From an uncultured bacterium (GTDB taxonomy: Bacteria; Verrucomicrobiota; Verrucomicrobiia; Verrucomicrobiales; DEV007), in contig CAXBMO010000026.1 of the NCBI GenBank assembly GCA_963977015.1, forward strand, positions 1-64,000: DNA of 64,000 nt, in the 5' to 3' direction. Positions 2,025-20,123 of the stretch are shown here, one piece after another (the first letter of the stretch is position 1; the number at the start of each line of letters is the position of its first letter). Under the pieces are notes generated by a model. It was not told where the DNA came from, ran no database searches, and worked only from the letters and a program-made list of their open reading frames with translations. Made by a program: the position numbers and the translations under genes.

Positions 2025-3059
2025 TTACGGCTGATCGGGATTGCAGGTCCCGCAGTTTTTAATTCCTTCACCCAACGCAGAAAAATGGCCTCCGGCGCGA
2101 TTGCGATGGTGGCAATCGATTCGGTGGAGCGTTCCGTTGTGGTTGAGCCATAACGTGTCGCCCACCACGGTGGGCCGTTGGTGGAGATCAACGGTGACGT
2201 GATGGAACGGAGACGTAATCCGTGGATTCGGGATCGGGCTACGCCAAAGCTCCTTCTCAACCGGCAGGAATCGGGGGCTGAGGATGCGGGTTTTGCGGGC
2301 GGCAGGGCGACCGATGCGGTAATCCCAGGGAGGTTGAGCCGTTTCTGACCCACCCCACAGCCCTTCCTTCTCTCTTTTCGCCTTTTTAAAGGCCTCCTCA
2401 TACTCCTCGTTGACCCAATAATCTGGCGAGTGCCACGCCAATCCCTCCTCAATCAATTGCAGGTTCACGTTCTCTCCTTGAGCATCAAAAACCGTTCCCG
2501 TAATCCGCTTAAAGCTGTTGCCCACCCGGTAGACCGTCACCCTTTGGCCCTGTACCAACTCCCCCAAACGCTGTTTCGCCCTCGCGCAAAAAGGTTGGGC
2601 CTTCTCCGGTGCATCAATCCCGTGGAGCCGAATCCGAAGCATCCGCTTTGCATCGGTCACCAGCATCAACGTGTCCCCGTCCTCAATTCCGATCACCTTC
2701 CCCTTGATGATTCCCGATTGATACTCCGAAATAATTTCCAAGTCCCGGTCACTCATCCGGGATCTCGGCACCACGATCTCCTCGGAAGTGGCGAGGTTCA
2801 ACAACGTATACTTGCCTTCTCCTTCTTCAGCAGGTGCCGCCTTCTCATCATCCGTGTCTTTCTCTTCCGTCACCTTGATGATGACTCCATAAAAAACGTC
2901 TCGCCATTTCAGATCCCAATCGCGCTTCAGGCGGCTGAGATTCTCATGTGCATTGGGTTTATGGGGCGGATTTTTGGGCTTGGCAGGCTCTGCCGCACCG
3001 TGCGAAAGGGAAACTCCCAAAAGAAGAGCGGCAACCAAGCCAACCAGAAAACGCTTCAT
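2025..3059 (-). CDS. Secreted thermonuclease (SNase) family protein
   Basis: Signal peptide; IEDGDTL, RIRLHGIDAPEKAQPF, NVNLQLIEEGLAW, AKREKEGLW, PPWDYR; C-terminal HRIDC..CGTC. Confidence 0.85.
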   Translation of the reverse strand: MKRFLVGLVAALLLGVSLSHGAAEPAKPKNPPHKPNAHENLSRLKRDWDLKWRDVFYGVIIKVTEEKDTDDEKAAPAEEGEGKYTLLNLATSEEIVVPRSRMSDRDLEIISEYQSGIIKGKVIGIEDGDTLMLVTDAKRMLRIRLHGIDAPEKAQPFCARAKQRLGELVQGQRVTVYRVGNSFKRITGTVFDAQGENVNLQLIEEGLAWHSPDYWVNEEYEEAFKKAKREKEGLWGGSETAQPPWDYRIGRPAARKTRILSPRFLPVEKELWRSPIPNPRITSPFHHVTVDLHQRPTVVGDTLWLNHNGTLHRIDCHHRNRAGGHFSALGEGIKNCGTCNPDQP

Positions 3060-6110: not shown

Positions 6111-6850
6111 AAACACTCGTCGTGGGAGCAACCGGAGCCACGGGACGGCTCATCGTGGAAGATCTGCTCGGTCGCGGCCAGGAAGTCGTCGCCGTGGTTC
6201 GATCGCCCGAAAAGCTACCCGAACACCTGAGAAGCCACGCTGGATTGACGATCGTCACCGGATCCATCCTCGAACTTGGCGACGGGGAAATCGCCGAACA
6301 CCTGGCGGGCTGCGACGCCGTCGCCAGTTGCCTGGGCCACTCGCTGAACTTTGCCGGGCTCTTTGGCAATCCAAGAAGGCTGGTTAGGGATACCGCGCGC
6401 CGGTTGTGCGAGGCGGCGCAACGCAAGCAGGGGAACGCGCCGGGCTCGCCGGTCAAATTCGTCCTCATGAACACCGCCGGCAACAGCAATCGCGATCTCA
6501 ACGAGCCGATCTCGCTGGGGCAGAAATGCATCATCGGCCTGCTGCGCGCCCTCCTTCCGCCCCATTCCGACAACGAAGACGCCGCCGACTACCTGCGCAC
6601 CACCTTTGGGCCGGAGAACCCCGCCATCGAATGGGTCGTGGTGCGACCGGACAGCCTGACCAACGAACCTGACGTCACTCCCTACCAGCTTCACCTCTCC
6701 CCAACGCGCAGCGCCATCTTCGACCCCGGTCAAACCAGCCGCATCAACGTCGCCCATTTCATGGCTGAACTACTGACCAACGGCGAAGCCTGGGAAACTT
6801 GGAAGGGACAGATGCCGGTCATCTACAACACTGAGGAGTCGGCCGAGTAG
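6107..6850 (+). CDS. NAD(P)-binding atypical SDR (flavin reductase/BVR-B-like)
   Basis: VVGATGATG Rossmann motif, VRSPEKL, WVVVRPDSL, SRINVAHFM; ATGA overlap with the upstream gene. Confidence 0.85.
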   Translation: MKTLVVGATGATGRLIVEDLLGRGQEVVAVVRSPEKLPEHLRSHAGLTIVTGSILELGDGEIAEHLAGCDAVASCLGHSLNFAGLFGNPRRLVRDTARRLCEAAQRKQGNAPGSPVKFVLMNTAGNSNRDLNEPISLGQKCIIGLLRALLPPHSDNEDAADYLRTTFGPENPAIEWVVVRPDSLTNEPDVTPYQLHLSPTRSAIFDPGQTSRINVAHFMAELLTNGEAWETWKGQMPVIYNTEESAE

Positions 6851-7254
6851 GTTTTGGGCGGAGGTGTGGAAGACGCGTATTGGAGAATGGATCGCCGATT
6901 CCTGAACCTTCTGCGGAATCATTGGGCAGAGGTGAAATGCTTCATCCGCGTTGGTGAAAAACTGTATCCCTGCTACTCTTAAACCCAGACGTGACAAGCA
7001 TCCACCGCTGCTCAATTTAGCGTTCACTTCCCATCCTTTACTATTCGAATTTCGGGGACTTGACTTCTATAACGGCAGAGGGGTAAATGATAAGCAAGAG
7101 TGTTTACCCGTCTTTGTAGCAATAGGTTGCAAAGTCCTCAATCACCTATTAATCAATAAATCAGGTTCTCCGGTTCATCAGGAGTTTTAAGTAAATGATT
7201 AAGGGCAAATTCCCTTTTTCTCTGTGAATTCCCAAAGCCACAACTAGCGATTTC

Positions 7255-8454
7255 ATGGCCACACTGCTTTATCTCCACGGTATCAACGTTCGCGATGCCG
7301 TCTCACAGCTTACCGAAAAAGACGTTGCTCAAAAGTTATTGGGACATAGTCTTGTAACTATTCCGTGGGGAGTCGACACAAATGTCCGACTTCACGGAGG
7401 TGGGCTCTCCATTCCAGTAGCCCGAAAGTTCGCTCAGCCCACTAATCCTTGGCATCATATAGAAACACAGCCACTTCACGCGCTTCAAATTTTAATGATT
7501 CGACACATCGGGTCGGAGCTACATTCCGGTTCTCCGATGGCCAAAGACTTTCGACAGGAGTTGCTCAGCTGCTTAAGTCAGTTGCGAGATAAGGCCTCAG
7601 CCGCCGTTAATTCCGATTCCAGCTTTGAAGTGTTTACCGAAACGGCGGCTGGTTTGGAACTCAACTATTACATTCCTTCTGCCATTGATTGGCTGCTCTC
7701 CTGCGATTTGGACTCCAATCTTGTAGCCGTGCAATCTTCCAATGTACAAGAATACCGTGATGCTTTGGCGCGGGCGATCTTCTTTAGAGCTCGTCAGTTA
7801 CACCTCTACGAGAAATCTACATCTTCCTTCACTCAATCCGATTACGAGGTGGCCCTCGACGCTCTAGCGGAAGCCCTCCGTGGAACTGACCGGTTTCTGG
7901 GTGGTGTGAAGAGATTCTGGGACTCTGCATCAGGCTTGATTACAGGCATGGTTCGAAATCATTTCACAGAACTTGCCATTCCCGCAGTCGGTGACGTGCT
8001 CTTTTACCAAGCCCATTACCCGAATTTGCACCTCAGGATTCAAGACGTTCTGGATCAAGCTGGCAATCAACCGGTCATCATGATTGGCCATAGCCTCGGC
8101 GGCGTAGCCCTTTTTGATTTCCTTTGCCGAAATCCCTGTGATAACCAAGTTCACGGCCTGGTCACGTTCGGTTCTCAGGCACCGTTCTTCTACGAAATGA
8201 ACGTATTTGCGGATGGTGGTCTGCCTTTCGATCCAGAATCCAAAACTGCCGATCGATTGCCGCCACATTTTCCGGCGAAGTGGCTGAATATTTACGATCC
8301 GTTGGACTGGCTTTCGTTCATTGGCCGCCCGCTATTCGGCAATAGAGTAACGGATATAGAGATCGATACAAAATCGCGCAACCCGCTCGAAGCGCACGGG
8401 GCCTACAACCAAACTGCCGATTTCTGGAAGCACCTCCAAACCTTTCTCGCATGA
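7255..8454 (+). CDS. Alpha/beta-hydrolase (lipase-like) protein
   Basis: LYLHGI oxyanion region, GDVLFYQ, nucleophile elbow IGHSLGG, LVTFGSQ, WLNIYDPLDWLSF, AHGAY (Ser-Asp-His triad). Confidence 0.85.
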   Translation: MATLLYLHGINVRDAVSQLTEKDVAQKLLGHSLVTIPWGVDTNVRLHGGGLSIPVARKFAQPTNPWHHIETQPLHALQILMIRHIGSELHSGSPMAKDFRQELLSCLSQLRDKASAAVNSDSSFEVFTETAAGLELNYYIPSAIDWLLSCDLDSNLVAVQSSNVQEYRDALARAIFFRARQLHLYEKSTSSFTQSDYEVALDALAEALRGTDRFLGGVKRFWDSASGLITGMVRNHFTELAIPAVGDVLFYQAHYPNLHLRIQDVLDQAGNQPVIMIGHSLGGVALFDFLCRNPCDNQVHGLVTFGSQAPFFYEMNVFADGGLPFDPESKTADRLPPHFPAKWLNIYDPLDWLSFIGRPLFGNRVTDIEIDTKSRNPLEAHGAYNQTADFWKHLQTFLA

Positions 8455-9308
8455 GCCTGTCTACCACTCAGCCCCATGATCCCGTGACATTCCCGATCGA
8501 CTCAGGTTCGGTTCTTCTTATCCTCGCAGCGGCAACTTATCGCTATGACATCAATGAGTTGCCCTCCGTGACCAGTGACATTGCTGAAGGGGAAGCGTTC
8601 GCTGATCGCATAGGAATCCCACCTGCGCAACGCCATCTCATTTGCTGGGGAGAACCATCGGTCTGGAGTGGACAGTGCACTGTTGATCCGGACCTTCTAT
8701 TGACGTCTACAACCCTCCGCGATTTGGCTTTTGCTTTAAAGAAAGGCCCGCTTCCAACATCCGTGATTATCATGTGGGGTGGACATGGTTACTACTGCAC
8801 AGCATCGGAACGGGACCAGGTTGCCCTTGTTCATCCAGACAGCCGACTCAGTGAACGATGGGGAATCTATGAGAGTCAACTTCTTCGATGTTTTCAAAGT
8901 ATCTCAGCCCCCCAGCTCTACTTGTTGGATTGTTGCCAACAGATGGATGCCACCGAACTAAAGGACCCCGGCTCAATGATGGACCCGGGCGGAGAACAGG
9001 CGGAAGTACTGCCAGCAGCCACCTTATTTTTCCCTGGAGCCGCAAACTCAAAGAGCACGGGCGGACTGTGGAAAGCCTTCAGCCGTAAGGTATCGGCGCA
9101 TGGATCTTTGAACCTTAGGGAAGTTTATCATCAAATCCGCACGGACCAACAATACCCTCTTCTTCTGAATGTACGTTGGCCTGATGAACGTAGTTGGCTG
9201 AGGAGTTCCTCGTCTTCTCCATCAAACATCGCGAAGCCCCGAGAACTAAGCGAAACTGAAAAATTCTGGGAAGCCCAACGGAAAATCATTCAAGATTGGG
9301 GCGATTGA
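8451..9308 (+). CDS. Caspase-like (peptidase C14) protein
   Basis: His in IIMWGGHG and Cys in LYLLDCC with caspase-like spacing; ATGA overlap with the hydrolase gene. Confidence 0.7.
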   Translation: MSLSTTQPHDPVTFPIDSGSVLLILAAATYRYDINELPSVTSDIAEGEAFADRIGIPPAQRHLICWGEPSVWSGQCTVDPDLLLTSTTLRDLAFALKKGPLPTSVIIMWGGHGYYCTASERDQVALVHPDSRLSERWGIYESQLLRCFQSISAPQLYLLDCCQQMDATELKDPGSMMDPGGEQAEVLPAATLFFPGAANSKSTGGLWKAFSRKVSAHGSLNLREVYHQIRTDQQYPLLLNVRWPDERSWLRSSSSSPSNIAKPRELSETEKFWEAQRKIIQDWGD

Positions 9309-9389
9309 ATGCTCTTTACCAAACTTGGTTAGGATTTTTCGGATAGATGACAGTGTGAGCTCGGCAAGGGTTTAACCATTGGACTTGAG

Positions 9390-11954
9390 TTAGCCGAGGC
9401 GTTGTGCCAGCAAAACAATTGCCTTCATTTCTGCCTCCACTCTCTGACGCTTTTGTTTGCTCAATGAACGCTTGTTGCGTAACGAGGTTTCTTTCTTGCG
9501 GTAGCGTTCCCTCCAAAGCAACCCAATCTTGTGCGCATCACGGCCTTCCCAGCCTTCAATAATCTCTTCCACAGCATTGTAGAAGGGAGAGTTTTCGTTT
9601 TCTACCTCAGCAGTATCCGCAAGGGCATCTGCTAAGATCGAGTTAACCATGCTTTCGGCGTCTTTGGCTCCACGGAATCCCCAAAATGCCTCAATTTCAT
9701 CTTGAAGCACGAATGAAAGAGAATCATTAAGGTTCTCGTCTCGATATCGTGAAATATAGAACTCGCGGAATGAAGGGCGGAATTCGCACATCGCCTCGAA
9801 TGGCCCCTTCTCCGCATTTTTCCCTGCCAAGGCATGGCGAAACTTACGACTGACGATCGGGACAAACGCCACCGCGTAGTTCCACCGTGCGTGCTCGTCG
9901 TCTTTGTTTCTCCATTCTTCCAACCGGTCGAGCACTTCCAAGCATCGCTCAATCGATTGCGAGGATTCGGACAGCAACGCTCCGATGGCTGCGTTGCGCG
10001 CGTTGCTTTTCCCTCTACAGAGTATCTGAGAGAAGAATTCTAGAATATCAAATCCCTCCTCGTAACGCAACCGGGTGCTAATCTGGATGGCGATGTCCTC
10101 GTCTCGCGAATCGATTAAACTTCCCAGAAGTTTGGTGACGTCTCCAGCACTGGTATTTCGGATGATGGCGCGGCAAAGTTCCGCGATGCGAGAGATCAGA
10201 AAGCTTGATAAATTACGATTATGGTCATAGGCTCTGAACCACTCCACAATACCGTCCATATCATCGGTTCGCTGCAATTTTTCTCGTTCGAACTCATCTA
10301 GTGCGGCCACAAGATTCTTTGAAAAGTCTGTTAGTTCGCGCAGCCAGCCCTGATCTGTTTCCTCAGCAAATTGAGGAAACATAGACGCAAAGTAGTCAAC
10401 CAAAAATCTGACACTACGATCAGGCAATTCTGGGTCGAAAAGTATTTTGTGGGAGTAAATTTTTTGGAAGCCATCGAACGTAATAGGTTGTGACTGGAGT
10501 TGACGACGTAACTGTTCACGAATCACTGTACCGTCGAATTCGACCACCAAACTTCCGCGCTGATTGGGAAATAAGCCAATGGAGCATTCTTCCCATATGT
10601 CATCCCTATTTTGAAGCAAGAATTCGTTGGCCTCGACAAACTGCTCTTCAATTTGTTCTTCCACCTTCCCTTCTTTGCTTGTTGTGTGTTTCTTTACCTG
10701 GACCTTTTGCTTTTTGCCAATCAACAAGATATTTAGCACTTTATTGAAAACTGTCACCGGAATGCCCGGAAGGTAGGATACCAAAAAAAGGATAGCCTGA
10801 TGACACGGCTTTTTCAATAACACCCGAAGCTCGTCACCAAGTTCAACTTGAGGGGAATAGGCTGTGTTTTCGCGATCGTTTATTAGCTTTTCAAGACCTT
10901 CTGGGCCGTTTTTCTGTAGTTCTCTGCGAACATCGTTGTAAAATTCGAATGGATCTTGTGACCAGAGCTGAGACTGCCTTTGTCGCTGTAGTTCATGAAT
11001 ATGATTTACCGTTTTCTCGACTGAAAAATGCTTCAGGAGCTGTATTTCAAGTGCATCCAGTTCCCAACGAAATGTGTCGGTCTGGAGGAGACAATCTCGA
11101 AGATTGGGAATTGTGAAGCCTGAGTATATCAGGAACACAAACACTATCTCTTTTTGTTGCAGATATGGCTTAAGGTTTGCTGCCCCAGCCCCTAGTGTTC
11201 GGCTTGCAAAACCCTGCATCACGCCGTTGCGAACATGAAAAAATATCGCAGTTGGAACTTCCGAATAGGTTTCCGCGAAGGACTTGGCCGTGAAAGTATT
11301 GTCCAGCAACTCATCCCCGCTGTCGATATCAACTTGGAGGCATTTGTGTTTTGCCCTATGTAATTCTCGGGCCACCCGCTGGCCTGCCTCCACGAGCATT
11401 TGTTCATCAATCGACTCGATTACCGCCATCCTTGATTCCATGAGTTTTGAGACTTCTCCAAACCTAATATCGTAGCGTAGGTTGGAATAGAACACGACAT
11501 TATCAACCAGATCAGAAACTTTGAAATTCGGATTTTTTGTCGTGAATACTGGATTGGCCTTTTGTCCCCCGGCCAGCGATGCTTCGGCGGAACCTGGCCG
11601 GTAGTCATTCCTAAAAATATTGTAGTGGACATCCCGCTCAGCGACTATTCCTGTGTTTTCCTTGATAGTCGTTGCTTTGTTCTCCACCTTGGTAGGCTCA
11701 GCCTTATCCTTTGGAATTGCAGGAAGAGGACCATCCTGTACCGGTTGTTTCCGATCTGATGCAGGCCCTTGCTGCTCTCCAACGGCTGGTTCTTGGGCAA
11801 TTCCAGAAGCCGACTGTCCGCCTTCTGTTGCTGATTTATCAGACGGTGGTATTTCGGTGGGATTCCCTTCCGGGCTGGTGTCCGCTTCTGGTGACGGCAA
11901 ATTGCCGTCACCTTCGTCTCCAGGGGGCGTTTGATTTGTGTTTGACTCAGGCAT
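9390..11954 (-). CDS. Large protein: disordered N-terminus, possible inactive STAND-like NTPase domain, C-terminal helical repeats
   Basis: ~854 aa from ATG 11954 (4 bp after the upstream stop, preceded by GAGGAAGG); alpha/beta central region with no intact Walker A; all-helical C-terminus. Domain call is inference. Confidence 0.5.
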   Translation of the reverse strand: MPESNTNQTPPGDEGDGNLPSPEADTSPEGNPTEIPPSDKSATEGGQSASGIAQEPAVGEQQGPASDRKQPVQDGPLPAIPKDKAEPTKVENKATTIKENTGIVAERDVHYNIFRNDYRPGSAEASLAGGQKANPVFTTKNPNFKVSDLVDNVVFYSNLRYDIRFGEVSKLMESRMAVIESIDEQMLVEAGQRVARELHRAKHKCLQVDIDSGDELLDNTFTAKSFAETYSEVPTAIFFHVRNGVMQGFASRTLGAGAANLKPYLQQKEIVFVFLIYSGFTIPNLRDCLLQTDTFRWELDALEIQLLKHFSVEKTVNHIHELQRQRQSQLWSQDPFEFYNDVRRELQKNGPEGLEKLINDRENTAYSPQVELGDELRVLLKKPCHQAILFLVSYLPGIPVTVFNKVLNILLIGKKQKVQVKKHTTSKEGKVEEQIEEQFVEANEFLLQNRDDIWEECSIGLFPNQRGSLVVEFDGTVIREQLRRQLQSQPITFDGFQKIYSHKILFDPELPDRSVRFLVDYFASMFPQFAEETDQGWLRELTDFSKNLVAALDEFEREKLQRTDDMDGIVEWFRAYDHNRNLSSFLISRIAELCRAIIRNTSAGDVTKLLGSLIDSRDEDIAIQISTRLRYEEGFDILEFFSQILCRGKSNARNAAIGALLSESSQSIERCLEVLDRLEEWRNKDDEHARWNYAVAFVPIVSRKFRHALAGKNAEKGPFEAMCEFRPSFREFYISRYRDENLNDSLSFVLQDEIEAFWGFRGAKDAESMVNSILADALADTAEVENENSPFYNAVEEIIEGWEGRDAHKIGLLWRERYRKKETSLRNKRSLSKQKRQRVEAEMKAIVLLAQRLG

Positions 11955-11958
11955 AGTT

Positions 11959-14577
11959 CTAGGAACCTTCCTCACGATCAGTCGTATTAGTATTATCGGT
12001 CAAACGTGAGTAATCACTTGGTTGCGAACTATTCTTGGAATGATCTTCAATTCTAAGGTTCCCTAATTCCGACTGATCTTCCAGCGCCTTCAACTCTTCC
12101 TCCAAGGCGTTAAGGTCTTGAACGGTCTTGTCGAGCTTGATTTCATCACCGGGAAACCCGGATTCCTCATAATCTTTCTTTTGTTCTAGCAGCATCGCTT
12201 GGCGCTCAACGATCGCATTAATCCGGTTCTTCCGCATTTTGAGTTGAGCTCTACGAAACTCCTCCGCATCTTCTGCGGCTTTGAGTTCCAGCCGGCCAGT
12301 CCCCCTTTCCAAAAGATCAATGGAAATATCCAACCCAAAGGCTTTGGCAACGCTTCTCTTGGCGAATGGCGAGATCACACTGGCCTTTAGGTCTTCAACT
12401 TCGCGGATATCACGATATCGTAGTTTTGAGGAGCCCAGCGTTTGCAGGTTCTGGCGACAAACATTTACGATACTTTCACCTACCTTCGCAAAAAAGTCGT
12501 CATCGCTTAGGTGCCTAGCCGAGTTCTGAAATTTGCCCCAGGCCTCAGCATTGTTTGCTATTCCCTCAATACTAAATGTTATATTGAATGAAATTTTTTC
12601 CAAGGCGTTATCCAGAGGAGTCACCTCGAATCCCAACGTTTTAGGCCGAGACGTCAGAATGTCGTGAGTTTTGCTAAATTGTGTCTCTAGCGGGGAAAGG
12701 ATTATGGTGTAGCATTCAGCATCATATCCGTGAGGAGGCTGCTGTCCGAAGGCCTCCTCAATTGAAGCTTTGATCTGATCTCCGGGTGATGCTCCATCGT
12801 CCATGCTCTCCTCAAACTCTAGAAAAAGCTGTTGTGGTAACAGATTTCGGGTGACCGATTCCACCCGAACATTGATTAAACGTTTCATTTCGGACTCCCA
12901 GTCCCATGTGGGGGTGAGGTAGTCTCGCAATGATTGAAGGTTTCGAAGTCGCCCCTCCACGTTAACTCGGCATGGAAATCGCACCCTAGAATCCTTCGTC
13001 AAAAATCCTTCGTCGCGTTGATTACCCCATTGGGAAGAATTCGATGTAGATTTGCTTCCTGCTTGGACGGTTTCATCGGCAGTGGCAACTTCTTCTGTTT
13101 TGCCATTGTCACCTTCGCCAACAACTTGGAATTCGTCGTCGGAGCTCGGTTTGGGTGAGTCTTTGGAGGAACTTACCGATCCATTGGTTTCGCCTTCCAA
13201 ACCTTCTGGGTCGCCACCACGAGTAATCTCTAGGCGAAATCCTTCATCAATAAGCTTGCGGAGAGGAAGGTTGGGAATGCTGATGAGTTGGCGGACCACT
13301 AACCCGACATCGGCGGCTTGTTGTCTTACTGCAGATCCTATCCGCTGTTTGATAGGATCGAATGCTAGTAGCAAGTCGGTATAGGTGTGACCAAATAATT
13401 CTTTTTGCGTGCAACGATTCAAAATATCAGTAACCCAATTCTCGAAATTGGTGATTCCAGCTTGTTGGTATTTTGCGACCTCTGAAAGGTCCGTATCCAA
13501 TTGATGGCGAATTGAAACTTGGGTATCATCTGGTTGAACACGGCAAGAGACATCGTGTTCAAAGGTGTCATCAATTGTGGCAATTAAAGAGAAATTCGTG
13601 TGGAGTGCTAGGTGTTGGATACTCAAGCCATATTGATTGACAAATTGGTTTATGTGGCCTTCAAGACCCGCACGAACGCGCTCTGGCGACTTGTGAATAT
13701 CATCGATTGTAGGAGATCCTGCGAGCCATCTCTTCACTTCAGTGTCAATATTTCTCCGGAGATCTACAGGTGGAATATAAGTTTGGGAAGCATGCCCGTG
13801 TTCTTCAGCTGACATCAGGCCTATTTCATACCGAAATTGGATAGGCTCATTGGAAATGAATGTTTTGAAAGAGGGCGTTGAAAAGTACAAGATACCGTCG
13901 TAACTTGGGAAAGTCACTCCAGCGACTAACTGTAGTCCCAGTTGGCTGCTTGCTTTTTCAGCGAGAGTTCGTGCCAACGAATCCAATGCGGCAGGCGACA
14001 ATGCAGTGCCTTCTCCAACGTCTTGATGCAGTGAGTGGAGGATCGTCTCTTCGACAAATCGTAGAAAGATCTCATGTGGTTCTATAATGTCTCCCTGAAA
14101 GCCTAATCGTCCCCTAGCCAAGGACTCAACAAATTGCCGCTCTTTACTGCGAATGGGGCCGTGGATTTCAAACCAAATGTCCAACTCAATGGATTGACCT
14201 TGTAACCGCTCAAAGCGAAAATTACGAGGGGAGCAGGTTTGACGCCCTTCAAGAAACACAACGTAGTGACGCTGAAACTGCGCCGGATTAATAAAGCGAG
14301 TCCAGTTTACGGCCTTTTTGGTTTTTTCATCAATGGAAATGAGTAGCTCGTTGTCATTCAGAGACGAAGGTTTATCGGCTCCACGGGGAAGCATCTTCAC
14401 CAAAGGGGCAAGGTATGACTCAGCCACGGAAATAGAGGGTTTCCTTTCGTGGCTTTGAGTTGAGTCCACGACAGCAAAATCGTCGCTAGGGCGATTTGTG
14501 CCGAGTACTTTGAAAGCGTCTTGATTTGGCGTCTGATTGCTTTCGGTCTGGCCCAGAATTTTAAAGTCGTCGGACAT
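11959..14577 (-). CDS. Protein with ~5 tandem SPFH/band-7-like repeats and a C-terminal coiled coil
   Basis: ~110-aa units ending in QLGLQL, QYGLSI, DVGLVV, HGYDAE, AFGLDI; FLTKDSRVRF strand; heptad-rich C-terminus. Confidence 0.55.
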   Translation of the reverse strand: MSDDFKILGQTESNQTPNQDAFKVLGTNRPSDDFAVVDSTQSHERKPSISVAESYLAPLVKMLPRGADKPSSLNDNELLISIDEKTKKAVNWTRFINPAQFQRHYVVFLEGRQTCSPRNFRFERLQGQSIELDIWFEIHGPIRSKERQFVESLARGRLGFQGDIIEPHEIFLRFVEETILHSLHQDVGEGTALSPAALDSLARTLAEKASSQLGLQLVAGVTFPSYDGILYFSTPSFKTFISNEPIQFRYEIGLMSAEEHGHASQTYIPPVDLRRNIDTEVKRWLAGSPTIDDIHKSPERVRAGLEGHINQFVNQYGLSIQHLALHTNFSLIATIDDTFEHDVSCRVQPDDTQVSIRHQLDTDLSEVAKYQQAGITNFENWVTDILNRCTQKELFGHTYTDLLLAFDPIKQRIGSAVRQQAADVGLVVRQLISIPNLPLRKLIDEGFRLEITRGGDPEGLEGETNGSVSSSKDSPKPSSDDEFQVVGEGDNGKTEEVATADETVQAGSKSTSNSSQWGNQRDEGFLTKDSRVRFPCRVNVEGRLRNLQSLRDYLTPTWDWESEMKRLINVRVESVTRNLLPQQLFLEFEESMDDGASPGDQIKASIEEAFGQQPPHGYDAECYTIILSPLETQFSKTHDILTSRPKTLGFEVTPLDNALEKISFNITFSIEGIANNAEAWGKFQNSARHLSDDDFFAKVGESIVNVCRQNLQTLGSSKLRYRDIREVEDLKASVISPFAKRSVAKAFGLDISIDLLERGTGRLELKAAEDAEEFRRAQLKMRKNRINAIVERQAMLLEQKKDYEESGFPGDEIKLDKTVQDLNALEEELKALEDQSELGNLRIEDHSKNSSQPSDYSRLTDNTNTTDREEGS

Positions 14578-14588
14578 TGCTGAAATCG

Positions 14589-15383
14589 TTACGTAGGGTT
14601 GTTATTTTTTGGCCCTTTAAAGAGTCGGGCTACGAAAGATTGTGGAGGGCTCTTATTGATTCCATCGGAACCCGAATACCCGGTTGCGCGAGAGTAATTG
14701 TCACGATCGTTCGAGGTAGAACTGCTACCTTGCATCCGTTTTTGAAAATCACATTCGAAGCCAGAGCAATCGACCATGATTCCTCTGCAGGGAGCACTGT
14801 CTTTACCGTGAAAGACCCCCCACTGCTGAGTGTTTGGATTGAGAACTACCCCAATTTGCCATAGTTTACCAAATAGCTGTACCTGTGTGTCCCTGTCAGG
14901 CTCAGAGAAAAAAATCTGTAGTTCGTTGGGATGGGTATGATACCAACCAACCGTCCTGAGAAAAGGGTCGCCGAGCATCTTTTTGAGGCTATCCGCTTCT
15001 TGGAGTAGATCATTCCAAGCTGAGAAATTCATTTCGACACTCACCTCCGAGGAATGACTCTCCTTGCCGGGTATCGCATGCGTCGCAATGACGTTTAGGT
15101 TACTCATAGATAACCTAGGAAGTCCTATTTGACTTGGGTCGACAACCACTTCACCAATAAGGAGCCCGGCCTTTTCTTTCTGTCTAGTTCGATCATTTGT
15201 GCCCCAATTGATGTGATCGTATATAACCCGCCTTGCAGATGATTCAATTGTTACAAACGGACTGCTAACCAAACCGCTAGTTGTGCTTTCGTGAAACTCG
15301 CATCGATCATACGATGGCTGGTGCCTATATTCAAACGAGTGGCGTTTTTGTTCAGTATGGATTATATTGAATTCGTCTTCCAT
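14589..15383 (-). CDS. JAB/MPN+ metallo-isopeptidase (soluble)
   Basis: KEKAGLLIG Glu plus GWYHTHPNELQIFFSEPD (HxH..S..D JAMM motif). Confidence 0.9.
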   Translation of the reverse strand: MEDEFNIIHTEQKRHSFEYRHQPSYDRCEFHESTTSGLVSSPFVTIESSARRVIYDHINWGTNDRTRQKEKAGLLIGEVVVDPSQIGLPRLSMSNLNVIATHAIPGKESHSSEVSVEMNFSAWNDLLQEADSLKKMLGDPFLRTVGWYHTHPNELQIFFSEPDRDTQVQLFGKLWQIGVVLNPNTQQWGVFHGKDSAPCRGIMVDCSGFECDFQKRMQGSSSTSNDRDNYSRATGYSGSDGINKSPPQSFVARLFKGPKNNNPT

Positions 15384-15421
15384 TTTGGGACTCGAATATA
15401 CTACAATATCGACTTGAGGGG

Positions 15422-16756
15422 CTAGCTGTTCTCGGAGTCTCCCGATTCGGATTTTGTGGCCGTAGAGACATCTGCTTCGGGGGGGAGCGCTTCGGTTTTG
15501 GGTTTTGCGCCCTTGTTGTTTTCGATTTTTTGTTTAGCATCCTTGTTGTCTTCGGCTTTGGGTTTAGCGTCCTTGTCGTCTTCGGTTTTGGGTTTAGCGT
15601 CCTTGTTGTCTTCGGTTTTGGGTTTAGCGTCCTTGTTGTCTTCGACTTTGGGTTTAGCGTCCTTGTTGTCTTCGACTTTGGGTTTAGCGTCCTTGTTGTC
15701 TTCGACTTTGGGTTTTGCGTCCTTGTTGTCTTCGGATTTGGATTTTGTAACTTCGGTGTCTTGTGCTTTGGCGTTTGCTACCATCGTTTGATCACTCTGA
15801 TGTTGACTGCTAGTTGTAGAAAGAGTTCTGATGCTATCAGGTGGAATCGTGTTGTCGTCCGGATTAGTTGGAAATCCGCCAGAAGACACACTTCTCCTTA
15901 CTTCCTGAAGTTGTGTTTTTAGTTCCGTCAATTCGAACTTCAGATCTGAAACCTCGGAGGCCGCCCTTTCAAATTGCAGCCCTCGAAGACCGAGAAAACC
16001 ACCGACGATCAGTAGAATAGCCAGCGTAACAATTGCGATAATTTCCAATAGTGTTGTTCGACTCTGAGGGGACTGGACGATGATTTGAGGCTGGTTTTGG
16101 GAATTCATGATGAGGCCGGAGTCGTGATTGGAGTCGTGATTGGAGTCGTGATTGGAGAAACCGATAGGTTTGTTAGTTCTAAGGAACCCAAGGCAAGGGA
16201 GAGCGTTTTCACCGTGGAATGCACACCAAATTTCCCGATGTGGATTCAGAACAATTCCGAACTGCCAGTCCTCGCTAAAGTAGCGACGTTGCGTATCGCG
16301 GTCTGTGCCAGAAAAAAAGACATCAAGGTTGTTCGGGTGGGTGTGATACCAACCAATAATCCGAAGGTCGGGAGATGATTGAATTGCTTTATCCGCCACT
16401 TTGAGCATTTCATTCCAGGCATCGTAACCAAGATCAAGATGCACAGGGTTCCCGTCTCCTTGATGACCAGGTATCGCGCTGCGGGCTAGACCGATAACGT
16501 CCCCACCAATATCTAAGACTTGGCCAAGCAAAATTCCACCTTGCTCATTTCTGTTGAGACTAGTGGTTTGTCCCCAACCTATATGACCATTAATAATTTC
16601 AAAGGCCGAAGGTTCAACGATAACAATGTGCGTTGAACTAGTTCCAACTTGGCGATTAGAAACGGATTGAAAACCATCGAGTTGTAAGTCCTGAAAGCGA
16701 GCTGGTTCTGGGGAGTAAGGGGAAGACTCATCGATGATAGTTAGGGTGTCGTCCAT
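15422..16756 (-). CDS. JAB/MPN+ isopeptidase with TM helix, coiled coil and C-terminal 10-aa repeats
   Basis: NEQGGILLG; GWYHTHPNNLDVFFSGTD; TM LLEIIAIVTLAILLIVGGFLGL; KPKVEDNKDA repeats. Confidence 0.9.
   Translation of the reverse strand: MDDTLTIIDESSPYSPEPARFQDLQLDGFQSVSNRQVGTSSTHIVIVEPSAFEIINGHIGWGQTTSLNRNEQGGILLGQVLDIGGDVIGLARSAIPGHQGDGNPVHLDLGYDAWNEMLKVADKAIQSSPDLRIIGWYHTHPNNLDVFFSGTDRDTQRRYFSEDWQFGIVLNPHREIWCAFHGENALPCLGFLRTNKPIGFSNHDSNHDSNHDSGLIMNSQNQPQIIVQSPQSRTTLLEIIAIVTLAILLIVGGFLGLRGLQFERAASEVSDLKFELTELKTQLQEVRRSVSSGGFPTNPDDNTIPPDSIRTLSTTSSQHQSDQTMVANAKAQDTEVTKSKSEDNKDAKPKVEDNKDAKPKVEDNKDAKPKVEDNKDAKPKTEDNKDAKPKTEDDKDAKPKAEDNKDAKQKIENNKGAKPKTEALPPEADVSTATKSESGDSENS
15491..15746. 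repeat. 30-bp tandem repeat, 8 full units plus a partial one (encodes KPK[VTA]EDNKDA on the minus strand)
   Basis: Units TTCG(G/A)(T/C)TTTGGGTTTAGCGTCCTTGTTGTC begin at 15491, 15521 ... 15701. Confidence 0.95.
16118..16153. repeat. 12-bp tandem repeat x3 (SNHD) in the JAB-TM linker
   Basis: GGAGTCGTGATT three times. Confidence 0.9.
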
Positions 16757-16775
16757 TGTAAGAAGCTATTGGGGA

Positions 16776-17369
16776 TTAAATGATGTTAAAATCATCGGGT
16801 CCAGTTTCCTGTTTCCCTGAGGCACTAGAAATGTTGAAGATTTCAAAGGTTTCCTGCTCAACTTTCCCGGTTAAGTTTGGCTTTGGGGTTCGTGCCACCG
16901 GAAGCCGTCCACTATCTCGCATCTTGCAAAACCACTTTGCTTTTTCCGCATCACCATCTGTATAACTCTCGGGATTTGAAACCTCGGTATCAAATTCTAA
17001 AGTTCGAACCATTCTTACAACATGATCGACAAGGTCTATTTCAGAATCCCAGCTGCCCGCTCCTTCGCACCAACGACCGTCCCTCCACCAATTTGGATGA
17101 TAGGGAGCAGGCCTGGTGACCATCACAATTTCAGGTGATGATTCTGGGAAGGTTGAGGGCAGCTTCAGCCGTATTTCGTGGTTGTTCCGGAAATCAAAGC
17201 CGCTACTAATAACGGATTTGACCTCAAGCTTTAACTTGTATTCGGTAACATATGGAGGTGATCCGGAAACTACTTCCCAAGTTACCCACGGGCACTGTTG
17301 CTGGAATTTGACCATGTCACCGTATTCGTTTTTGAGGCGTAACCGGCGTTGTTTAGCAGAAAATGCCAT
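16776..17369 (-). CDS. Ubiquitin-conjugating enzyme E2 (UBC fold)
   Basis: RRLRLKNEY helix, LKLPSTFPESSPEI, HPN-x7-C (HPNWWRDGRWC; Cys codon 17067-17069), downstream W, NPES. Confidence 0.88.
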   Translation of the reverse strand: MAFSAKQRRLRLKNEYGDMVKFQQQCPWVTWEVVSGSPPYVTEYKLKLEVKSVISSGFDFRNNHEIRLKLPSTFPESSPEIVMVTRPAPYHPNWWRDGRWCEGAGSWDSEIDLVDHVVRMVRTLEFDTEVSNPESYTDGDAEKAKWFCKMRDSGRLPVARTPKPNLTGKVEQETFEIFNISSASGKQETGPDDFNII

Positions 17370-17372
17370 GAT

Positions 17373-18950
17373 TTAGATGGGTTGTGTGATTCCTGCTTGC
17401 GTTGCTGGAACGATTCGGAGAGCTGTATTTGATGCCACTCCCTGTTGCGAAAGTGCTGTGTTGGAGTCTAGGAGGATGCTCTCACCGCCGGTAGTAGCAA
17501 GAGAGTAATCTCCAGCCTTCAGAAAGTTCGCTTCTACGAGTTTTGCGATCACTCTTGATGGAGTCATAGATGAAGATATCTCCACGGTAATCTCCTTGCC
17601 GGTGGTGGGATGTACGAATGTCAGGGTCAATTTGTCGTTCATAGCTTTATCTATCTGAGAAAATTTATATCGTAAGGACTGTGGTGGACACAGGCGACTG
17701 GCTCGGTCCAAACTCAAGGTGTAGTAGTCAAAGTCATCTTTAACAGGCGAGAATACAGTGATGTAAGGGCCAAAGGGGAAACCTAGCTGTTGAATTGTCT
17801 TGTCTAGCACATTATTCTCAGAGGTAAGATCAATGGATTCTAAGGTGTGAGTTTCGTAACTGGTCTCCCCAATCACCGCGTTGTGATCCTCAAAAATCTT
17901 TGCGACCTCATCTTGAGTCATTGTGAAAATGGGACGGTATACGGGAATCTCTACTCCGGTTTCTAACACAAAACTTTTCACAAACGTAGTGTGTGTTATC
18001 TCTAGGCTACAGTTTTCGCCTGAATGCTCTGTTGTCGTTACGGCATTTAAAAAATCACGGACGGTGCAACTACTTGGGAGAGGGACCTCCCAATTGGGTG
18101 TGATGGGGCTTAATGGTTCAGTTGTTTCTGAAATGTTCGCATAACCAAAAGAATCGAGGCTATTTGACATTCCTTGAAAGAAGAGTCGCTTTCCGATCGC
18201 TAGATTCTGCTTGCAAAGGTGCTTTACGGCTTCCTGAACTTGGAGGCCTGAAACAAGCGTTGCAGCAATCTGTGTGGTCGCTACCCGACTCTCCTTCGCC
18301 GCTTGGACTTTAAATCCAAAACAAGAGTTACGATCTACCGCATTTTGGAGTTCATTCTTACTTAGAGTCGATTCGTAGGAAATCAGTGAATCCGGGCTAA
18401 AAAAAGTCACAGAGAGCCCCAACTCGTGGATGCCCGCGTCAATCCAGGGGATACCAGCTAAACGACAATTGCGATCAATTGCCAATCTTGCTCCAACATT
18501 ATCCAAGCAACCCAAAACGACATCCATCTCAGCGTAAATTGAAGGTCCTAGATCTCTAGTTACGTCCCCATGATACCACTCAATTTCGAATGACGGATTG
18601 ACAGCAAGCTCTCGAACTCGACGAGCTGCAACTTCGACCTTTTTTTTCCCAATGTCCTCTCTCCGAAAAAGTACAGTTCTTGAGAGATTAGATCTTTCGA
18701 CTGTGTCAAAATCGAGCGCGAAAACGTAACCGAATCCCAGTAGTGCGAGGTTTTTAAGCGTTTCGTTCCCGACAGCCCCAGTGCCGATAACCATTACTCT
18801 TGAATCTCTGAGGCGTTTTTGATCCCACCACTCGATACGTTCTTGGCGATCTACAGGGTTTTCGTCCGGATCGTAAACGTTCAAAACCGAGAAGTTATCG
18901 TCGGCCGTCGTTGAATTAATTATTCCGGTCTTCACTGTTTCCATTGCCAT
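17373..18950 (-). CDS. ThiF/E1 ubiquitin-activating enzyme fused to a C-terminal ubiquitin-like domain
   Basis: RQERIEWWDQ, VIGTGAVG, DFDTVERSNLSR, GCLDN, putative catalytic Cys in DRNSC; last 89 aa (MNDKLTLTFVHP...LRIVPATQAG-ITQPI) show a beta-grasp pattern. Start at 18950 or 18944. Confidence 0.88.
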   Translation of the reverse strand: MAMETVKTGIINSTTADDNFSVLNVYDPDENPVDRQERIEWWDQKRLRDSRVMVIGTGAVGNETLKNLALLGFGYVFALDFDTVERSNLSRTVLFRREDIGKKKVEVAARRVRELAVNPSFEIEWYHGDVTRDLGPSIYAEMDVVLGCLDNVGARLAIDRNCRLAGIPWIDAGIHELGLSVTFFSPDSLISYESTLSKNELQNAVDRNSCFGFKVQAAKESRVATTQIAATLVSGLQVQEAVKHLCKQNLAIGKRLFFQGMSNSLDSFGYANISETTEPLSPITPNWEVPLPSSCTVRDFLNAVTTTEHSGENCSLEITHTTFVKSFVLETGVEIPVYRPIFTMTQDEVAKIFEDHNAVIGETSYETHTLESIDLTSENNVLDKTIQQLGFPFGPYITVFSPVKDDFDYYTLSLDRASRLCPPQSLRYKFSQIDKAMNDKLTLTFVHPTTGKEITVEISSSMTPSRVIAKLVEANFLKAGDYSLATTGGESILLDSNTALSQQGVASNTALRIVPATQAGITQPI

Positions 18951-19300
18951 TTGCACTCGAGTTCACCACATTCCCAATTTGAATTACCTAGCTCTTTTAT
19001 GAGTTTACTCTTACATTGTGGACATTTAGAAGGCTTACCTTCACTGATTATAGCGAAACTTGTGGATCCAACACTTGCGGGGGTAGGGCTTGAAATTACC
19101 CTAAAGTGATCGTTTTCAACTGTACGGCGGTTTTGTGGAGCGGGCACGGGGGATGTCCCCATAAAGGCTGAATTGTTGTTGGTGACCGTCGGTGGGGTCC
19201 TGTTTGAGTTTTTGATGTGCAGCCACCTAGCCGCGCTGACTACAATGGCGAGCACTACAGCAAAGATTAAAAAAAATCCGAAACCCCAATCTGCGATCAC
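18932..19300 (-). CDS. Single-pass membrane protein with C-terminal Zn ribbon
   Basis: N-terminal TM; KPSKCPQCK...WECGELEC; overlaps the E1 start. Confidence 0.75.
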   Translation of the reverse strand: MIADWGFGFFLIFAVVLAIVVSAARWLHIKNSNRTPPTVTNNNSAFMGTSPVPAPQNRRTVENDHFRVISSPTPASVGSTSFAIISEGKPSKCPQCKSKLIKELGNSNWECGELECKWQWKQ

Positions 19301-19385
19301 ACTGCGAATGTGAAGTGGACTGAAATGAAGTCAAAAAAAAAATAAACTTTTAGGGTGTGTAGTGTAATTCTAATTCTTATCGGCG

Positions 19386-19916
19386 TCAGGCCCACCAGTG
19401 CTCACACTCGATGCACCGCCAACCACTTCTTGAATGCTCAGTAATTCTGGTCCCCTTACAGATTGGGCATTTTTGTGGCTTGGTGACCGAAAGCACAGTT
19501 ACCGATTCATCTGGATGTGCCCAATCAGTCGGAAGCTGAATTGGTTCAGCCAGGCGGTGACCGGAGAGTAGATTAATTCTTGGATTTGATCCAAATTTGT
19601 TAGAACCAGTGGTTCCGGGCAGGATACCACACTCAATAATCCACCAGATAATTCCCACGTAGGGAATCAAGGTAATTAGGATCCACCATCCTGACCTGTT
19701 GCGATCATGCCAACGCTTTGTCTGAATCGCGATACACATCCAAGCTGCAGGGATGAATGCAAAGAAAAATGCTGCACCCGAACCAAAAATTGCTTCCACT
19801 ATCGAATAAATTATTAACCCTGAAATTATCACTAGTGGGCAGAATTTCCAGAACAGGTTGCGTCCTATTCTTCCTTGGAGTTGGAACAAAATGTGACTGG
19901 GCTTCATAGCTCGCAT
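19386..19916 (-). CDS. DUF805 membrane protein with C-terminal Zn ribbon
   Basis: GRIGR..FW, KRWHDRNRSGWW, PGTTGSNKFG (DUF805); KPQKCPICK...WRCIEC. Confidence 0.85.
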   Translation of the reverse strand: MRAMKPSHILFQLQGRIGRNLFWKFCPLVIISGLIIYSIVEAIFGSGAAFFFAFIPAAWMCIAIQTKRWHDRNRSGWWILITLIPYVGIIWWIIECGILPGTTGSNKFGSNPRINLLSGHRLAEPIQLPTDWAHPDESVTVLSVTKPQKCPICKGTRITEHSRSGWRCIECEHWWA

Positions 19917-20123
19917 TCTTCACTTATCATGTTTCGAAACTGGACCGGTCAGGATCAAAGGTGTCTGCCTAGTTAATATGAATCACCGCTATTCAAACAT
20001 TGTTCAAGTCATGGATTCTGGAAGATCGCATTGAGTCCCTAAACGGTGTCTTTGGCGTGACCTCTCCGGGGGAAGTTCACTGTCGAATTTATCGGCAGTG
20101 CGGCGGCTCTCAACACGACCTAC

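Follow-up and report, generated by a model that had tools for sequence, protein, structure and literature searches.

The operon and its island

A 64,000-nt stretch of DNA from an uncultured bacterium of the DEV007 lineage (Verrucomicrobiota; contig CAXBMO010000026.1 of assembly GCA_963977015.1, positions 1-64,000), referred to here as the window, contains at 9390..19916 an operon in which the genes of a ubiquitin-like (Ubl) protein conjugation cassette stand beside the genes of two large proteins that resemble, in their predicted folds, SPFH and STAND proteins. All eight open reading frames (ORFs) of the operon lie on the minus strand. In the order of transcription, they encode p1 (19916..19386) and p2 (19300..18932), which contain Zn-ribbons; an E1 enzyme fused to a Ubl (18956..17373); an E2 enzyme (17369..16776); two JAB/MPN+ peptidases, p5 (16756..15422) and p6 (15383..14589); the multi-SPFH protein p7 (14577..11959); and the STAND-like protein p8 (11975..9390). 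Successive genes are separated by 85 bp, an overlap, and then 3, 19, 38, and 11 bp; the last gap is 4 bp if the gene for p8 (861 aa) begins at the ATG at 11954, the start used by an 854-aa database copy. A first-pass annotation, made from the DNA letters alone, had described eight co-oriented ORFs with this spacing, and the ORF coordinates bear it out.

The whole system lies within a low-GC island (6800..20000), for which the composition profile gives a content of guanine plus cytosine (GC) of 43-52% versus 60-67% in the flanks. A search of 40 related genomes, of which 3 belong to the same genus, 21 to the same family, and 16 to the same order, did not find the E1, and a profile of p7 has no match in 400 other genomes of the phylum. 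The drop in GC, together with the lack of E1 and p7 in the relatives searched, shows that the island was gained by horizontal acquisition. No tRNA gene is present within window positions 1-30000.

The conjugation enzymes and the Ubl

The E1-Ubl fusion protein (527 aa; 17373..18956, minus strand) probably starts at the ATG at 18944, and its E1 portion comprises residues ~1-420. This portion matches the Pfam ThiF family (4.4e-45), and the ThiF match and the family alignment together give it one active adenylation domain and a catalytic Cys. Every invariant column of the 25-sequence family alignment is kept (GxGxxGNE, SNLSR, D152/N153, R157, and C212), with the catalytic C212 encoded at 18321-18323. 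Among relatives of solved structure, the E1 profile is nearest to eukaryotic UBA1 (1.3e-37), ahead of ThiF (1e-26), while NCBIfam yields sub-threshold matches only, of the ThiF/MoeB/UbaA type. Three Cys residues that are each at least 90% conserved in the alignment (C193, C196, and C278) are missing from the window E1 and from a 63%-identical metagenomic relative (E1 residues ~190-200 and ~278-340), as are Cys pairs present in the 300s of the E1 consensus; the structural zinc site of most E1 relatives has probably been lost in the window E1.

The Ubl occupies the last ~85 residues of the E1 ORF (residues 439-522; 17391-17642) and aligns with 73 free-standing Ubl ORFs from relatives. Those ORFs end in AG or GG followed by a tail of 0 to ~10 residues. 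The window protein ends in PATQAG-ITQPI, that is, with the 5-residue tail ITQPI after G522. The Ubl is thus predicted to be a beta-grasp domain with a Gly end and a removable tail. The fusion is in frame and at the end of the E1: the ancestral start Met of the Ubl is kept at 17642-17640, and the former intergenic stretch is translated. An identical E1-Ubl fusion (523 aa) is on record from 2 contigs, and the 63%-identical metagenomic E1 is not fused to a Ubl. Another fusion is found in Candidatus Electrothrix communis (P0009, 767 aa), where the Ubl ends in TISAGG and is followed by ~330 further residues of unknown function, so that this Ubl would need to be cut out at its C-terminus.

The E2 (197 aa; 16776..17369, minus strand) has the HPN motif (H91, P92, and N93) and a C101 (encoded at 17067-17069) that is invariant in 23/23 sequences. 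Its profile is nearest, among solved relatives, to UBE2A/Rad6 (1.7e-10); the match to Pfam UQ_con is weak (0.005). Of the two peptidases, p5 (444 aa; 15422..16756, minus strand) has its JAMM motif at residue 138, a transmembrane (TM) helix at 239-257, and a charged KPK/EDNKDA repeat tail, and p6 (264 aa; 14589..15383, minus strand) is soluble, with its JAMM motif at residue 149. Both match Pfam JAB (1.5e-06 for p5 and 9.2e-09 for p6) and contain an intact H-x-H-x8-S-x2-D. The p5 tail (15422-15800, minus strand) consists of about eight tandem KPK-x-EDNKDA units; a 130-aa ORF read from the other strand (15530-15922) has most likely arisen as an artefact of these units. From these motifs, the E1, the Ubl, the E2, and both JABs look catalytically intact, in agreement with the first-pass annotation, which had placed the two catalytic Cys residues at the same positions.

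A RING protein is missing, as had also been noted from the letters alone: no match to Prok-RING_1 was found in the eight operon proteins (Pfam, E<=0.1), and elsewhere in the genome the best Prok-RING_1 score, on another contig, is 19.1 bits, under the 29.1-bit cut-off.

The Zn-ribbon proteins

The first gene of the operon encodes p1 (176 aa; 19386..19916, minus strand), a DUF805 membrane domain (Pfam, 1.4e-21) with a C-terminal four-Cys Zn-ribbon. One related locus (L032) encodes a protein that combines Prok-RING_1 with DUF805. The second gene encodes p2 (122 aa; 18932..19300, minus strand), in which a single TM helix is joined by a linker to a C-terminal Zn-ribbon. Its family is that of the small Zn-ribbon proteins sited just upstream of the E1 and found, by a local hidden Markov model (HMM), in 29 related loci. 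A CxxC..CxxC pattern lies within the last 50 aa of 25/29 ORFs of this family; a TM-like segment is present in only 2/29. This copy of the system has two Zn-ribbon proteins, both membrane-anchored, and the anchoring of the Zn-ribbon protein looks to be a peculiarity of this copy. In the operon as a whole, hydropathy finds hydrophobic segments in p1, p2, and p5 only, in line with the three membrane-anchored members that had been proposed.

Relatives of the Ubl cassette

E1 relatives were scored among 8000 candidates, 581 of which match at E<=1e-10. A typical relative has ~412 aa and one ThiF domain and covers about 75% of the query. From 117 confirmed matches, obtained in a scan with one genome per species, 80 loci (L001-L080) were chosen and analysed as six-frame ORFs, with HMMs iterated from the window proteins and with heuristic ORF starts. 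Besides the E1 (80/80), these loci contain an E2 in 67 cases, a JAB in 67, and a p2-like Zn-ribbon protein in 29, along with 73 Ubl ORFs. The p7 and p8 genes were detected in just 6/80 and 8/80, respectively. Thus, the survey of gene neighbourhoods that had been suggested reveals a real conserved unit, to which the Zn-ribbon gene belongs in 29 loci, but the SPFH and STAND-like genes are not regularly kept with it.

Two arrangements of the cassette can be distinguished. In group 1, which includes Kordia and other Bacteroidota, filamentous cyanobacteria, Thiomargarita, a gammaproteobacterium, and Acidobacteriota, the order is Zn-ribbon, E1, Ubl, E2 (~178 aa), and then at least one JAB; the Ubl has ~85-94 aa and ends in PATDAG plus a tail of up to ~10 residues. 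Usually, a further gene comes next, the product of which has an N-terminus matching Pfam Prok-RING_1. Matches to this family were seen in 6/10 neighbouring proteins tested, with only the L047 protein above the curated cut-off. In group 2, which is planctomycete, the order is Ubl, E2, E1, JAB, and in L060 (12705-17277) and other planctomycete loci, genes for an M48 (CAAX-type) membrane peptidase and an MMPL transporter come after the cassette. L047 and L074 encode TM proteins in which Prok-RING_1 is C-terminal.

Since the E1 is nearest to UBA1, the E2 is nearest to UBE2A/Rad6, and the relatives carry Prok-RING_1-like proteins, the core cassette can be assigned from its sequences to the eukaryote-like prokaryotic Ubl systems, a kind already known from comparative genomics. 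The Pfam family Prok-RING_1 (PF14446) stems from these systems, and eukaryote-like prokaryotic Ubl systems with a RING E3 were reportedly described by Burroughs, Iyer and Aravind in 2011. Chambers et al. (2023) cite such RING-bearing operons as uncharacterised.

The Kordia loci contain TIR proteins, a WYL regulator, and an N6 methylase alongside the cassette (two TIR-domain proteins, a WYL/WCX regulator, and an N6-methylase/HATPase, at L001:2689-3252, L001:7844-8281, L003:15167-16177, and L001:18631-21141), which suggests a defence-island context for these cassettes. Two Kordia loci (L001:12714-13259 and L002:12047-12592) encode, between extra JAB genes, a second Ubl of 181 aa with two beta-grasp domains, an N-terminal KKKFKIL, and the end SGC. 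In two cyanobacterial loci (L022:4138-6696 and L025:6514-8982), the gene immediately upstream of the Zn-ribbon/E1 cassette encodes a ClpC-type double AAA+ unfoldase; this may be chance synteny or may be a link to proteolysis.

The p8-p7 pair

The multi-SPFH protein p7 (872 aa; 11959..14577, minus strand) and p8 have no match in Pfam, PADLOC, or NCBIfam, and word-index searches with them return only the proteins themselves. A structure model of p7 (predicted local distance difference test score, pLDDT, of 65.8; built from 7 sequences) contains, after a disordered N-terminus, at least three SPFH domains, a disordered insert (456-522), and long C-terminal helices (762-837) that form a coiled coil after the SPFH domains. 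Compared by VIA, the domain at 226-332 matches flotillin (Z 12.6), that at 332-438 matches prohibitin (Z 14.7; root-mean-square deviation, rmsd, of 2.0 over 104 residues), and that at 634-763 again matches flotillin (Z 11.4). The Foldseek matches listed are all stomatin, prohibitin, HflK/C, flotillin, erlin, or vault chains, and the FliL periplasmic domain also fits p7 (VIA Z 9.6). A 634-aa protein at the position of p7 in L020 matches Pfam Band_7 (9.4e-06). Hydropathy gives no hydrophobic segment and no TM anchor in p7. In its modelled fold, p7 is a multi-SPFH protein, so that the tandem SPFH domains seen in the first-pass annotation hold at fold level.

The partner protein, p8 (861 aa; 9390..11975, minus strand), probably starts at 11954. 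Its residues 1-172 are disordered and are followed by an AAA+/STAND-like domain (166-309), a helical region, a possible winged helix, and helical repeats. The model (pLDDT 57.9, from 9 sequences) has as its top Foldseek matches SAMD9, Avs3/4, NLRC4, NOD2, Cdc6/ORC, and FtsH. By VIA, residues 166-309 give Z 10.9 to the clamp-loader delta subunit (nucleotide-free; rmsd 3.4, 131 aligned), 10.6 to AVAST5, and ~10 to p97 and dynein; ESM Atlas returns nSTAND3/5 clusters. Compared by order alone, the secondary structures of the model fit a helical domain, a winged helix, and a C-terminal repeat sensor. At fold level, p8 is therefore modelled as AAA+/STAND-like, as had been proposed. However, a Walker A motif (GxxxxGK[ST]) is missing from the window p8, from all copies beside Ubl cassettes (0/8), and from the copies of the wider module (0/20); in the window protein the loop between beta1 and helix 1 reads ESIDEQ. 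Because Walker A is missing, p8 is not expected to be an active NTPase or a usual binder of nucleotide, and only the fold part of the earlier proposal stands.

The p7 family extends well beyond the Ubl cassettes: its profile matches 736 cluster representatives at E<=1e-3, of which 455 remain at <=1e-30. In 36 metagenome loci fetched for this wider family (L084-L119), p8 is encoded directly upstream of p7 in 21 of the 22 that have enough upstream DNA. A gene for a CHAT or trypsin-like peptidase lies upstream in 16/19, and a MotA/ExbB-like gene (PADLOC ZorA) and a MotB/OmpA-like gene (ZorB) lie downstream in 18/23 and 15/23, respectively. None of the 36 loci contains an E1, E2, or JAB. Thus, p7 and p8 form a separate module and are not a general part of the Ubl cassette. 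In its five-gene form (CHAT/trypsin-like peptidase, Walker-A-less STAND-like protein, multi-SPFH protein, ZorA-like protein, and ZorB-like protein; for example L085:4080-12625 and L096:4633-12268), this metagenome module resembles a relative of Zorya that has SPFH, a pseudo-STAND, and a protease as partners.

Beside the Ubl cassette, the p8-p7 pair recurs in Bacteroidota, Gammaproteobacteria, Acidobacteriota, an unclassified marine bacterium, and the window genome. A protease gene is kept in 5 of the 8 loci that combine the cassette with p8 (CHAT-like in L016, L020, and L029; trypsin-like in L013 and L014), and the other three, from Kordia, have TIR proteins instead. DUF4407 membrane proteins are encoded in 3/8 of these loci (L003:6649-7704, L020:14053-15171, and L029:13541-14554). 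No ZorA- or ZorB-like gene was detected in L001-L080, including the eight p8-bearing loci, and the eight window operon proteins have no MotA_ExbB or OmpA match (Pfam and PADLOC; the rest of the genome was not searched for these domains). The window operon is a composite, in which a Ubl cassette accompanies the p8-p7 pair and ZorAB-like genes are not detected.

A shared strand motif and its change of charge

Proteins of both modules share a short, charged strand motif, F-x-[IV], which is acidic (DDF) in the window and basic (KKF) in the relatives. In the window, it is found as DNFSVL in the E1 (residue 20), as ETFEIFNI and DDFNII in the C-terminal tail of the E2 (the latter being its last six residues), as DDTLTII and EDEFNII at the N-termini of p5 and p6, respectively, as DHFRVI and SFAII in the linker of p2, and as ESVTVLSV, the strand that precedes the Zn-ribbon of p1. 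The disordered N-terminus of p7 contains DDFKIL, DAFKVL, and DDFAVV, and its disordered insert contains DEFQVV. The relatives have the motif at the same positions: MKKFxI on the E1, KKKFxIN at the end of the E2, 2-3 copies in the Zn-ribbon protein, and 1-3 copies at the N-terminus of p7. In group 1, it occurs in 29/37 E1 N-termini, 21/25 E2 proteins (last 12 residues), 22/24 p2 proteins, and 5/6 p7 N-termini, and in 0/8 p8 proteins; the background in other ORFs of the same loci is 20/349 N-termini and 6/349 C-termini. F22 of the E1 is invariant in 25/25 sequences. The conservation of the position of the motif across phyla, as read from these alignments, is the independent evidence for it.

The wider p7 family provides a contrast. 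Most of its members start with a different conserved N-terminus, MSQTYPLDxVIRR, and a basic motif is present in the first 40 residues of only 10 of the 143 representatives that start with Met. Among the 60 N-termini listed, the representatives that bear the motif rank among the closest to the window p7. By this distribution, the motif tracks the Ubl cassette.

The charge of the motif appears to vary together with that of the Ubl. Across 63 interrelated loci, E2-tail charge and Ubl net charge are inversely correlated (Spearman -0.69), and the E2 of the planctomycete group ends in DEIVFIE. Alignment columns were counted as co-switching if they are acidic in >=60% of the basic-motif loci and in <=10% of the acid-motif loci and are not acidic in the window. 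Such columns make up 5/85 of the Ubl (positions 15, 24, 25, 31, and 35), 2/150 of the E2 core, and 6/398 of the E1; they are about four times denser in the Ubl, where they cluster from the beta1/beta2 turn to alpha1. The corresponding Ubl sequences are DD..TGQE..AEL in group 1, SS..TPSR..AKL in the window, and AF..PVSR..PNI in the planctomycetes. This region would correspond to where beta2 ends and alpha1 makes its first turns, and the groove between beta2 and alpha1 is where SUMO-interacting motifs (SIMs) bind SUMO. The motif may thus represent a SIM-like network for docking of the Ubl. In a FastTree phylogeny, the basic-motif clade includes the window E1, which is placed beside Bacteroidota and at a long distance from the planctomycete clade with the acid motif; because of this nesting, the motif and the Ubl appear to have changed charge together twice.

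Neighbouring genes in and near the island

Two further genes lie inside the island on the plus strand. One encodes a caspase-like protein of 285 aa (8451..9308; GHG ... DCC), which is convergent with p8, its ORF ending 82 bp from the end of p8, and which is a candidate effector. It has no Pfam match, but the ESM Atlas gives a feature score of 0.94 to Peptidase_C14 clusters, with TM-scores of 0.56-0.69 (by query) over 201-249 aligned residues. CHAT and trypsin profiles built from the related loci gave no match to it, and a reading of the gene as a CHAT homologue found no support in its sequence. The other encodes an alpha/beta-hydrolase-like protein of 399 aa (7255..8454; GHSLGG), a possible second effector, for which all Pfam matches are sub-threshold (Hydrolase_4 at 6.6e-05, Abhydrolase_1, PGAP1, and LCAT) and PADLOC has no match. 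Upstream of the island, at a distance of a few kb (~4-6 kb), are genes for a NERD-domain protein (428-1651, plus strand; 7.9e-30) and an SNase-domain protein (2025-3059, minus strand; 4.8e-16), which may be part of a wider defence neighbourhood.

A proposed mechanism and its alternatives

From the gene content, the intact catalytic motifs, the folds, the synteny and conservation of both modules, the positions of the motif, and the charge covariation, we infer a scheme of binding, conjugation, triggering, and protease control. In this scheme, to which we give about an even chance, the locus encodes a horizontally acquired composite conflict system, most likely active in anti-phage defence or abortive infection, with its two modules linked by a Ubl-docking motif; the genomic context makes a defence role plausible. 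One JAB would trim the ITQPI tail, exposing G522. The E1 would then adenylate G522 and take the Ubl on C212, after which the E2 would accept it on C101 and pass it to target lysines without a RING. The second, membrane-anchored JAB would reverse conjugation at the membrane. Since the Ubl is fused to the E1, the conjugated species could be either the whole E1-Ubl polypeptide or, in addition, free Ubl made from the retained internal ATG.

The second module would consist of an oligomeric multi-SPFH scaffold and its nucleotide-blind AAA+/STAND-like partner, and the cascade would assemble on this scaffold at the membrane. The two modules would be held together by the strand motif (an acidic residue, F, x, I/V, I/L/V) on the E1, the E2, the JABs, the Zn-ribbon proteins, and p7 (four copies), which would dock into the Ubl's beta2/alpha1 groove by beta-strand addition, in the manner of a SIM on SUMO. 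The system as a whole would control the caspase-like effector. A further-reaching version, offered tentatively and with more doubt than belief, is that a bacterial non-covalent Ubl reader code of the SIM or LIR type (LIR, LC3-interacting region) organises the cascade and has been charge-swapped together with the Ubl groove at least two times, and that the cascade replaces a ZorAB-type stator beside an SPFH cage, a dead STAND, and a caspase/CHAT-type protease. If so, the system would be a prokaryotic counterpart of ubiquitin-controlled, caspase-type cell-death platforms.

Several points weigh against this proposal. The structure models of p7 and p8 are both middling (pLDDT 65.8 and 57.9, from 7 and 9 sequences). 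PADLOC returns only weak, generic E1/E2/JAB matches, and nothing for p1, p6, p7, and p8. The genes for the caspase-like protein and the hydrolase run opposite to the operon and lack sequence kinship to the CHAT and trypsin partners seen elsewhere. The regular expression for the motif was composed after the sequences had been inspected, and an N-terminal motif is found in only 5/35 group-1 JAB ORFs, partly as a result of the heuristic ORF starts. In the Zn-ribbon proteins, the last copy of the motif lies at a fixed distance before CPxC and may be part of that domain's own fold. Because the loci are interrelated, the correlation and the column counts overstate independence, and there are effectively two independent charge switches; the E1 tree that separates them was built by FastTree, with support values not inspected and the window on a long branch.

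The fixed position of that last copy, directly before CPxC in every Zn-ribbon protein, is also what one would expect if the motif were real but docked on another hub (the Zn-ribbon or RING proteins, the C-terminal domain of the E1, or a JAB) or if the strands paired with each other. The two-domain Ubl of Kordia, which itself bears the KKKFKIL motif and for which self-association through this motif is conceivable, fits such an arrangement too, as do the co-switching columns in the cores of the E1 and E2 (6/398 and 2/150). However, the Ubl is the simplest shared partner, since the E1, the E2, and the JAB all act on it, and its co-switching columns are ~4 times denser and lie in one region. In addition, loci without SPFH or STAND genes still bear the motif, which indicates that the SPFH and STAND proteins are not the hub. 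A hub other than the Ubl is therefore considered unlikely, although it is the strongest of the alternatives.

Docking on the Ubl could also serve something other than defence. The SPFH fold with its cage-forming relatives, the membrane-anchored JAB and Zn-ribbon proteins, and the ClpC-like AAA+ gene upstream of the cassette in two cyanobacterial loci would all suit a quality-control system in which Ubl tagging at an SPFH cage marks membrane proteins for proteolysis, as in HflK/C-FtsH. This seems improbable for an island that is foreign by its GC content and a system that searches of 40 relatives and of 400 genomes of the phylum did not find; relatives adjoin TIR, WYL, methylase, CHAT, and ZorAB-like genes, and a patchy spread over many phyla suits conflict systems better than housekeeping. 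Finally, the Ubl cassette and the SPFH/STAND pair might be unrelated neighbours in a defence island that act separately. Each does occur alone, given that most of the 80 E1 loci are without p7 and p8 and that 36 metagenome p7 loci are without E1 and E2. Yet the pair recurs beside the cassette in the five lineages named above, no ZorA/B-like genes were detected in L001-L080, and p7 bears the motif of the cassette, in the local charge flavour, in 5/6 cassette-adjacent loci versus 10/143 family-wide. Independent action is thus the least probable of these explanations, and a composite conflict system held together by docking on the Ubl is the reading retained here.

Comparison with known systems

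The gene set had not been recognised as a described system. This is correct with respect to Bil, Bub, and CBASS (see below), and PADLOC gives only weak, generic matches, but the core cassette is of the known eukaryote-like, Prok-RING_1-linked kind. The locus is a variant of a cassette known from comparative genomics, with a second module attached to it. Among bacterial systems, the eukaryote-like E1/E2/Ubl/JAB cassettes are those most closely related to canonical ubiquitination, and the literature compared contains no demonstrated target, partner, or function for them. Like the eukaryote-like prokaryotic systems with a RING E3, the window system has a single-adenylation-domain E1 with a catalytic Cys, an HPN E2, a single Ubl with a Gly end and a removable tail, and an MPN+ JAB. 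Unlike them, it lacks a RING, it carries its Ubl as part of the E1 polypeptide, one of its two JABs is membrane-anchored, two Zn-ribbon membrane proteins are present, and it is joined to an SPFH/pseudo-STAND pair and a caspase-like gene. A natural E1-Ubl fusion that comes without an E3 would simplify reconstitution. An archaeal operon, that of Caldiarchaeum subterraneum, is counted among the eukaryote-like prokaryotic Ubl systems with a RING E3 (PMC5654768, PMC6043591).

BilABCD resembles the window system in having separate E1, E2, Ubl, and JAB proteins, a JAB that is expected to trim the Ubl tail, no E3, and a conflict context. It has a tandem-domain E1, the gene order Ubl-E2-DUB-E1 (DUB, deubiquitinase), and, in type II, a CEHH E2 (PMC10557695; bioRxiv 10.1101/2024.11.21.623966). 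The window operon is ruled out as a Bil system by its single-adenylation-domain E1, its HPN-type E2, and its order E1-Ubl-E2-JAB; the PADLOC match to BilD amounts to 29.5 bits over 112 residues only. Bub systems share the E1/E2/Ubl/peptidase toolkit and, in type I, a fusion of the Ubl to an enzyme (Ubl-E2), and are described as using oxyester intermediates, with no catalytic Cys, a DUF6527 serine protease, and JAB-E1 or E2-E1 fusions (PMC11601596). Bub types I and II are ruled out, as there is no DUF6527 match, C212 and C101 are conserved, and the E1, E2, and JAB are encoded by separate genes. Type II CBASS (an anti-phage signalling system based on cyclic oligonucleotides; Cap2/Cap3), which is characterised by a CD-NTase and an E2-E1 fusion, was likewise rejected: no nucleotidyltransferase family is found among the eight proteins (Pfam, PADLOC, and NCBIfam), and the E1 matches the PADLOC E1-E2 models over the adenylation domain only (best 4e-16). 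In the text available of Iyer et al. (2006), none of the classes 6a-6e brings a Zn-ribbon protein and a single-domain E1 together with an E2 of the HPN type.

Zorya and other defence systems with ZorA/ZorB (MotA/MotB-like; PMC11946911, PMC11890865) resemble the second module in that its wider form, with SPFH and pseudo-STAND proteins, includes ZorA-like and ZorB-like genes. The window operon differs from Zorya, since its eight proteins are without a MotA_ExbB or OmpA domain. Neither SPFH nor CHAT occurs in the Zorya literature compared by word search, and a literature search found no paper in which a bacterial E1/E2 system is connected with SPFH, STAND, or CHAT. Through its multi-SPFH protein and nucleotide-blind STAND-like partner, the window operon would link Ubl tagging to a module that is otherwise encoded with ZorAB-like stator genes and caspase/CHAT proteases. 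In the SPFH cages (HflK/C-FtsH, prohibitin, stomatin, flotillin, and the major vault protein), as in the model of p7, SPFH domains are followed by long helices, and FliL, which forms rings around MotAB stators, has a periplasmic domain that matches p7. Unlike the cage proteins, p7 has at least three SPFH domains per chain, no membrane anchor, and a disordered N-terminus that bears the motif.

No description of the shared docking motif and its charge switch was found in the published work compared, among which the paper of Burroughs et al. (2011) was not included, so that the claim to novelty is limited to that extent. The closest parallels are eukaryotic pairs of a Ubl and a short motif, as is seen below for three of them. 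In SUMO and its SIM, Atg8 and its LIR, and UFM1 and its UFM1-interacting motif (UFIM), a short hydrophobic strand flanked by charges is borne by the conjugation enzymes themselves and is met by complementary charges in the beta2/alpha1 region of the Ubl. The motif of the window differs from these in the spacing of its core, F-x-[IV], in being bacterial, and in that its binding is putative. Its recurrence with compensating changes of charge predicts the exact residues to mutate. If the motif does bind the Ubl, recognition of the SIM/LIR type would predate eukaryotes.

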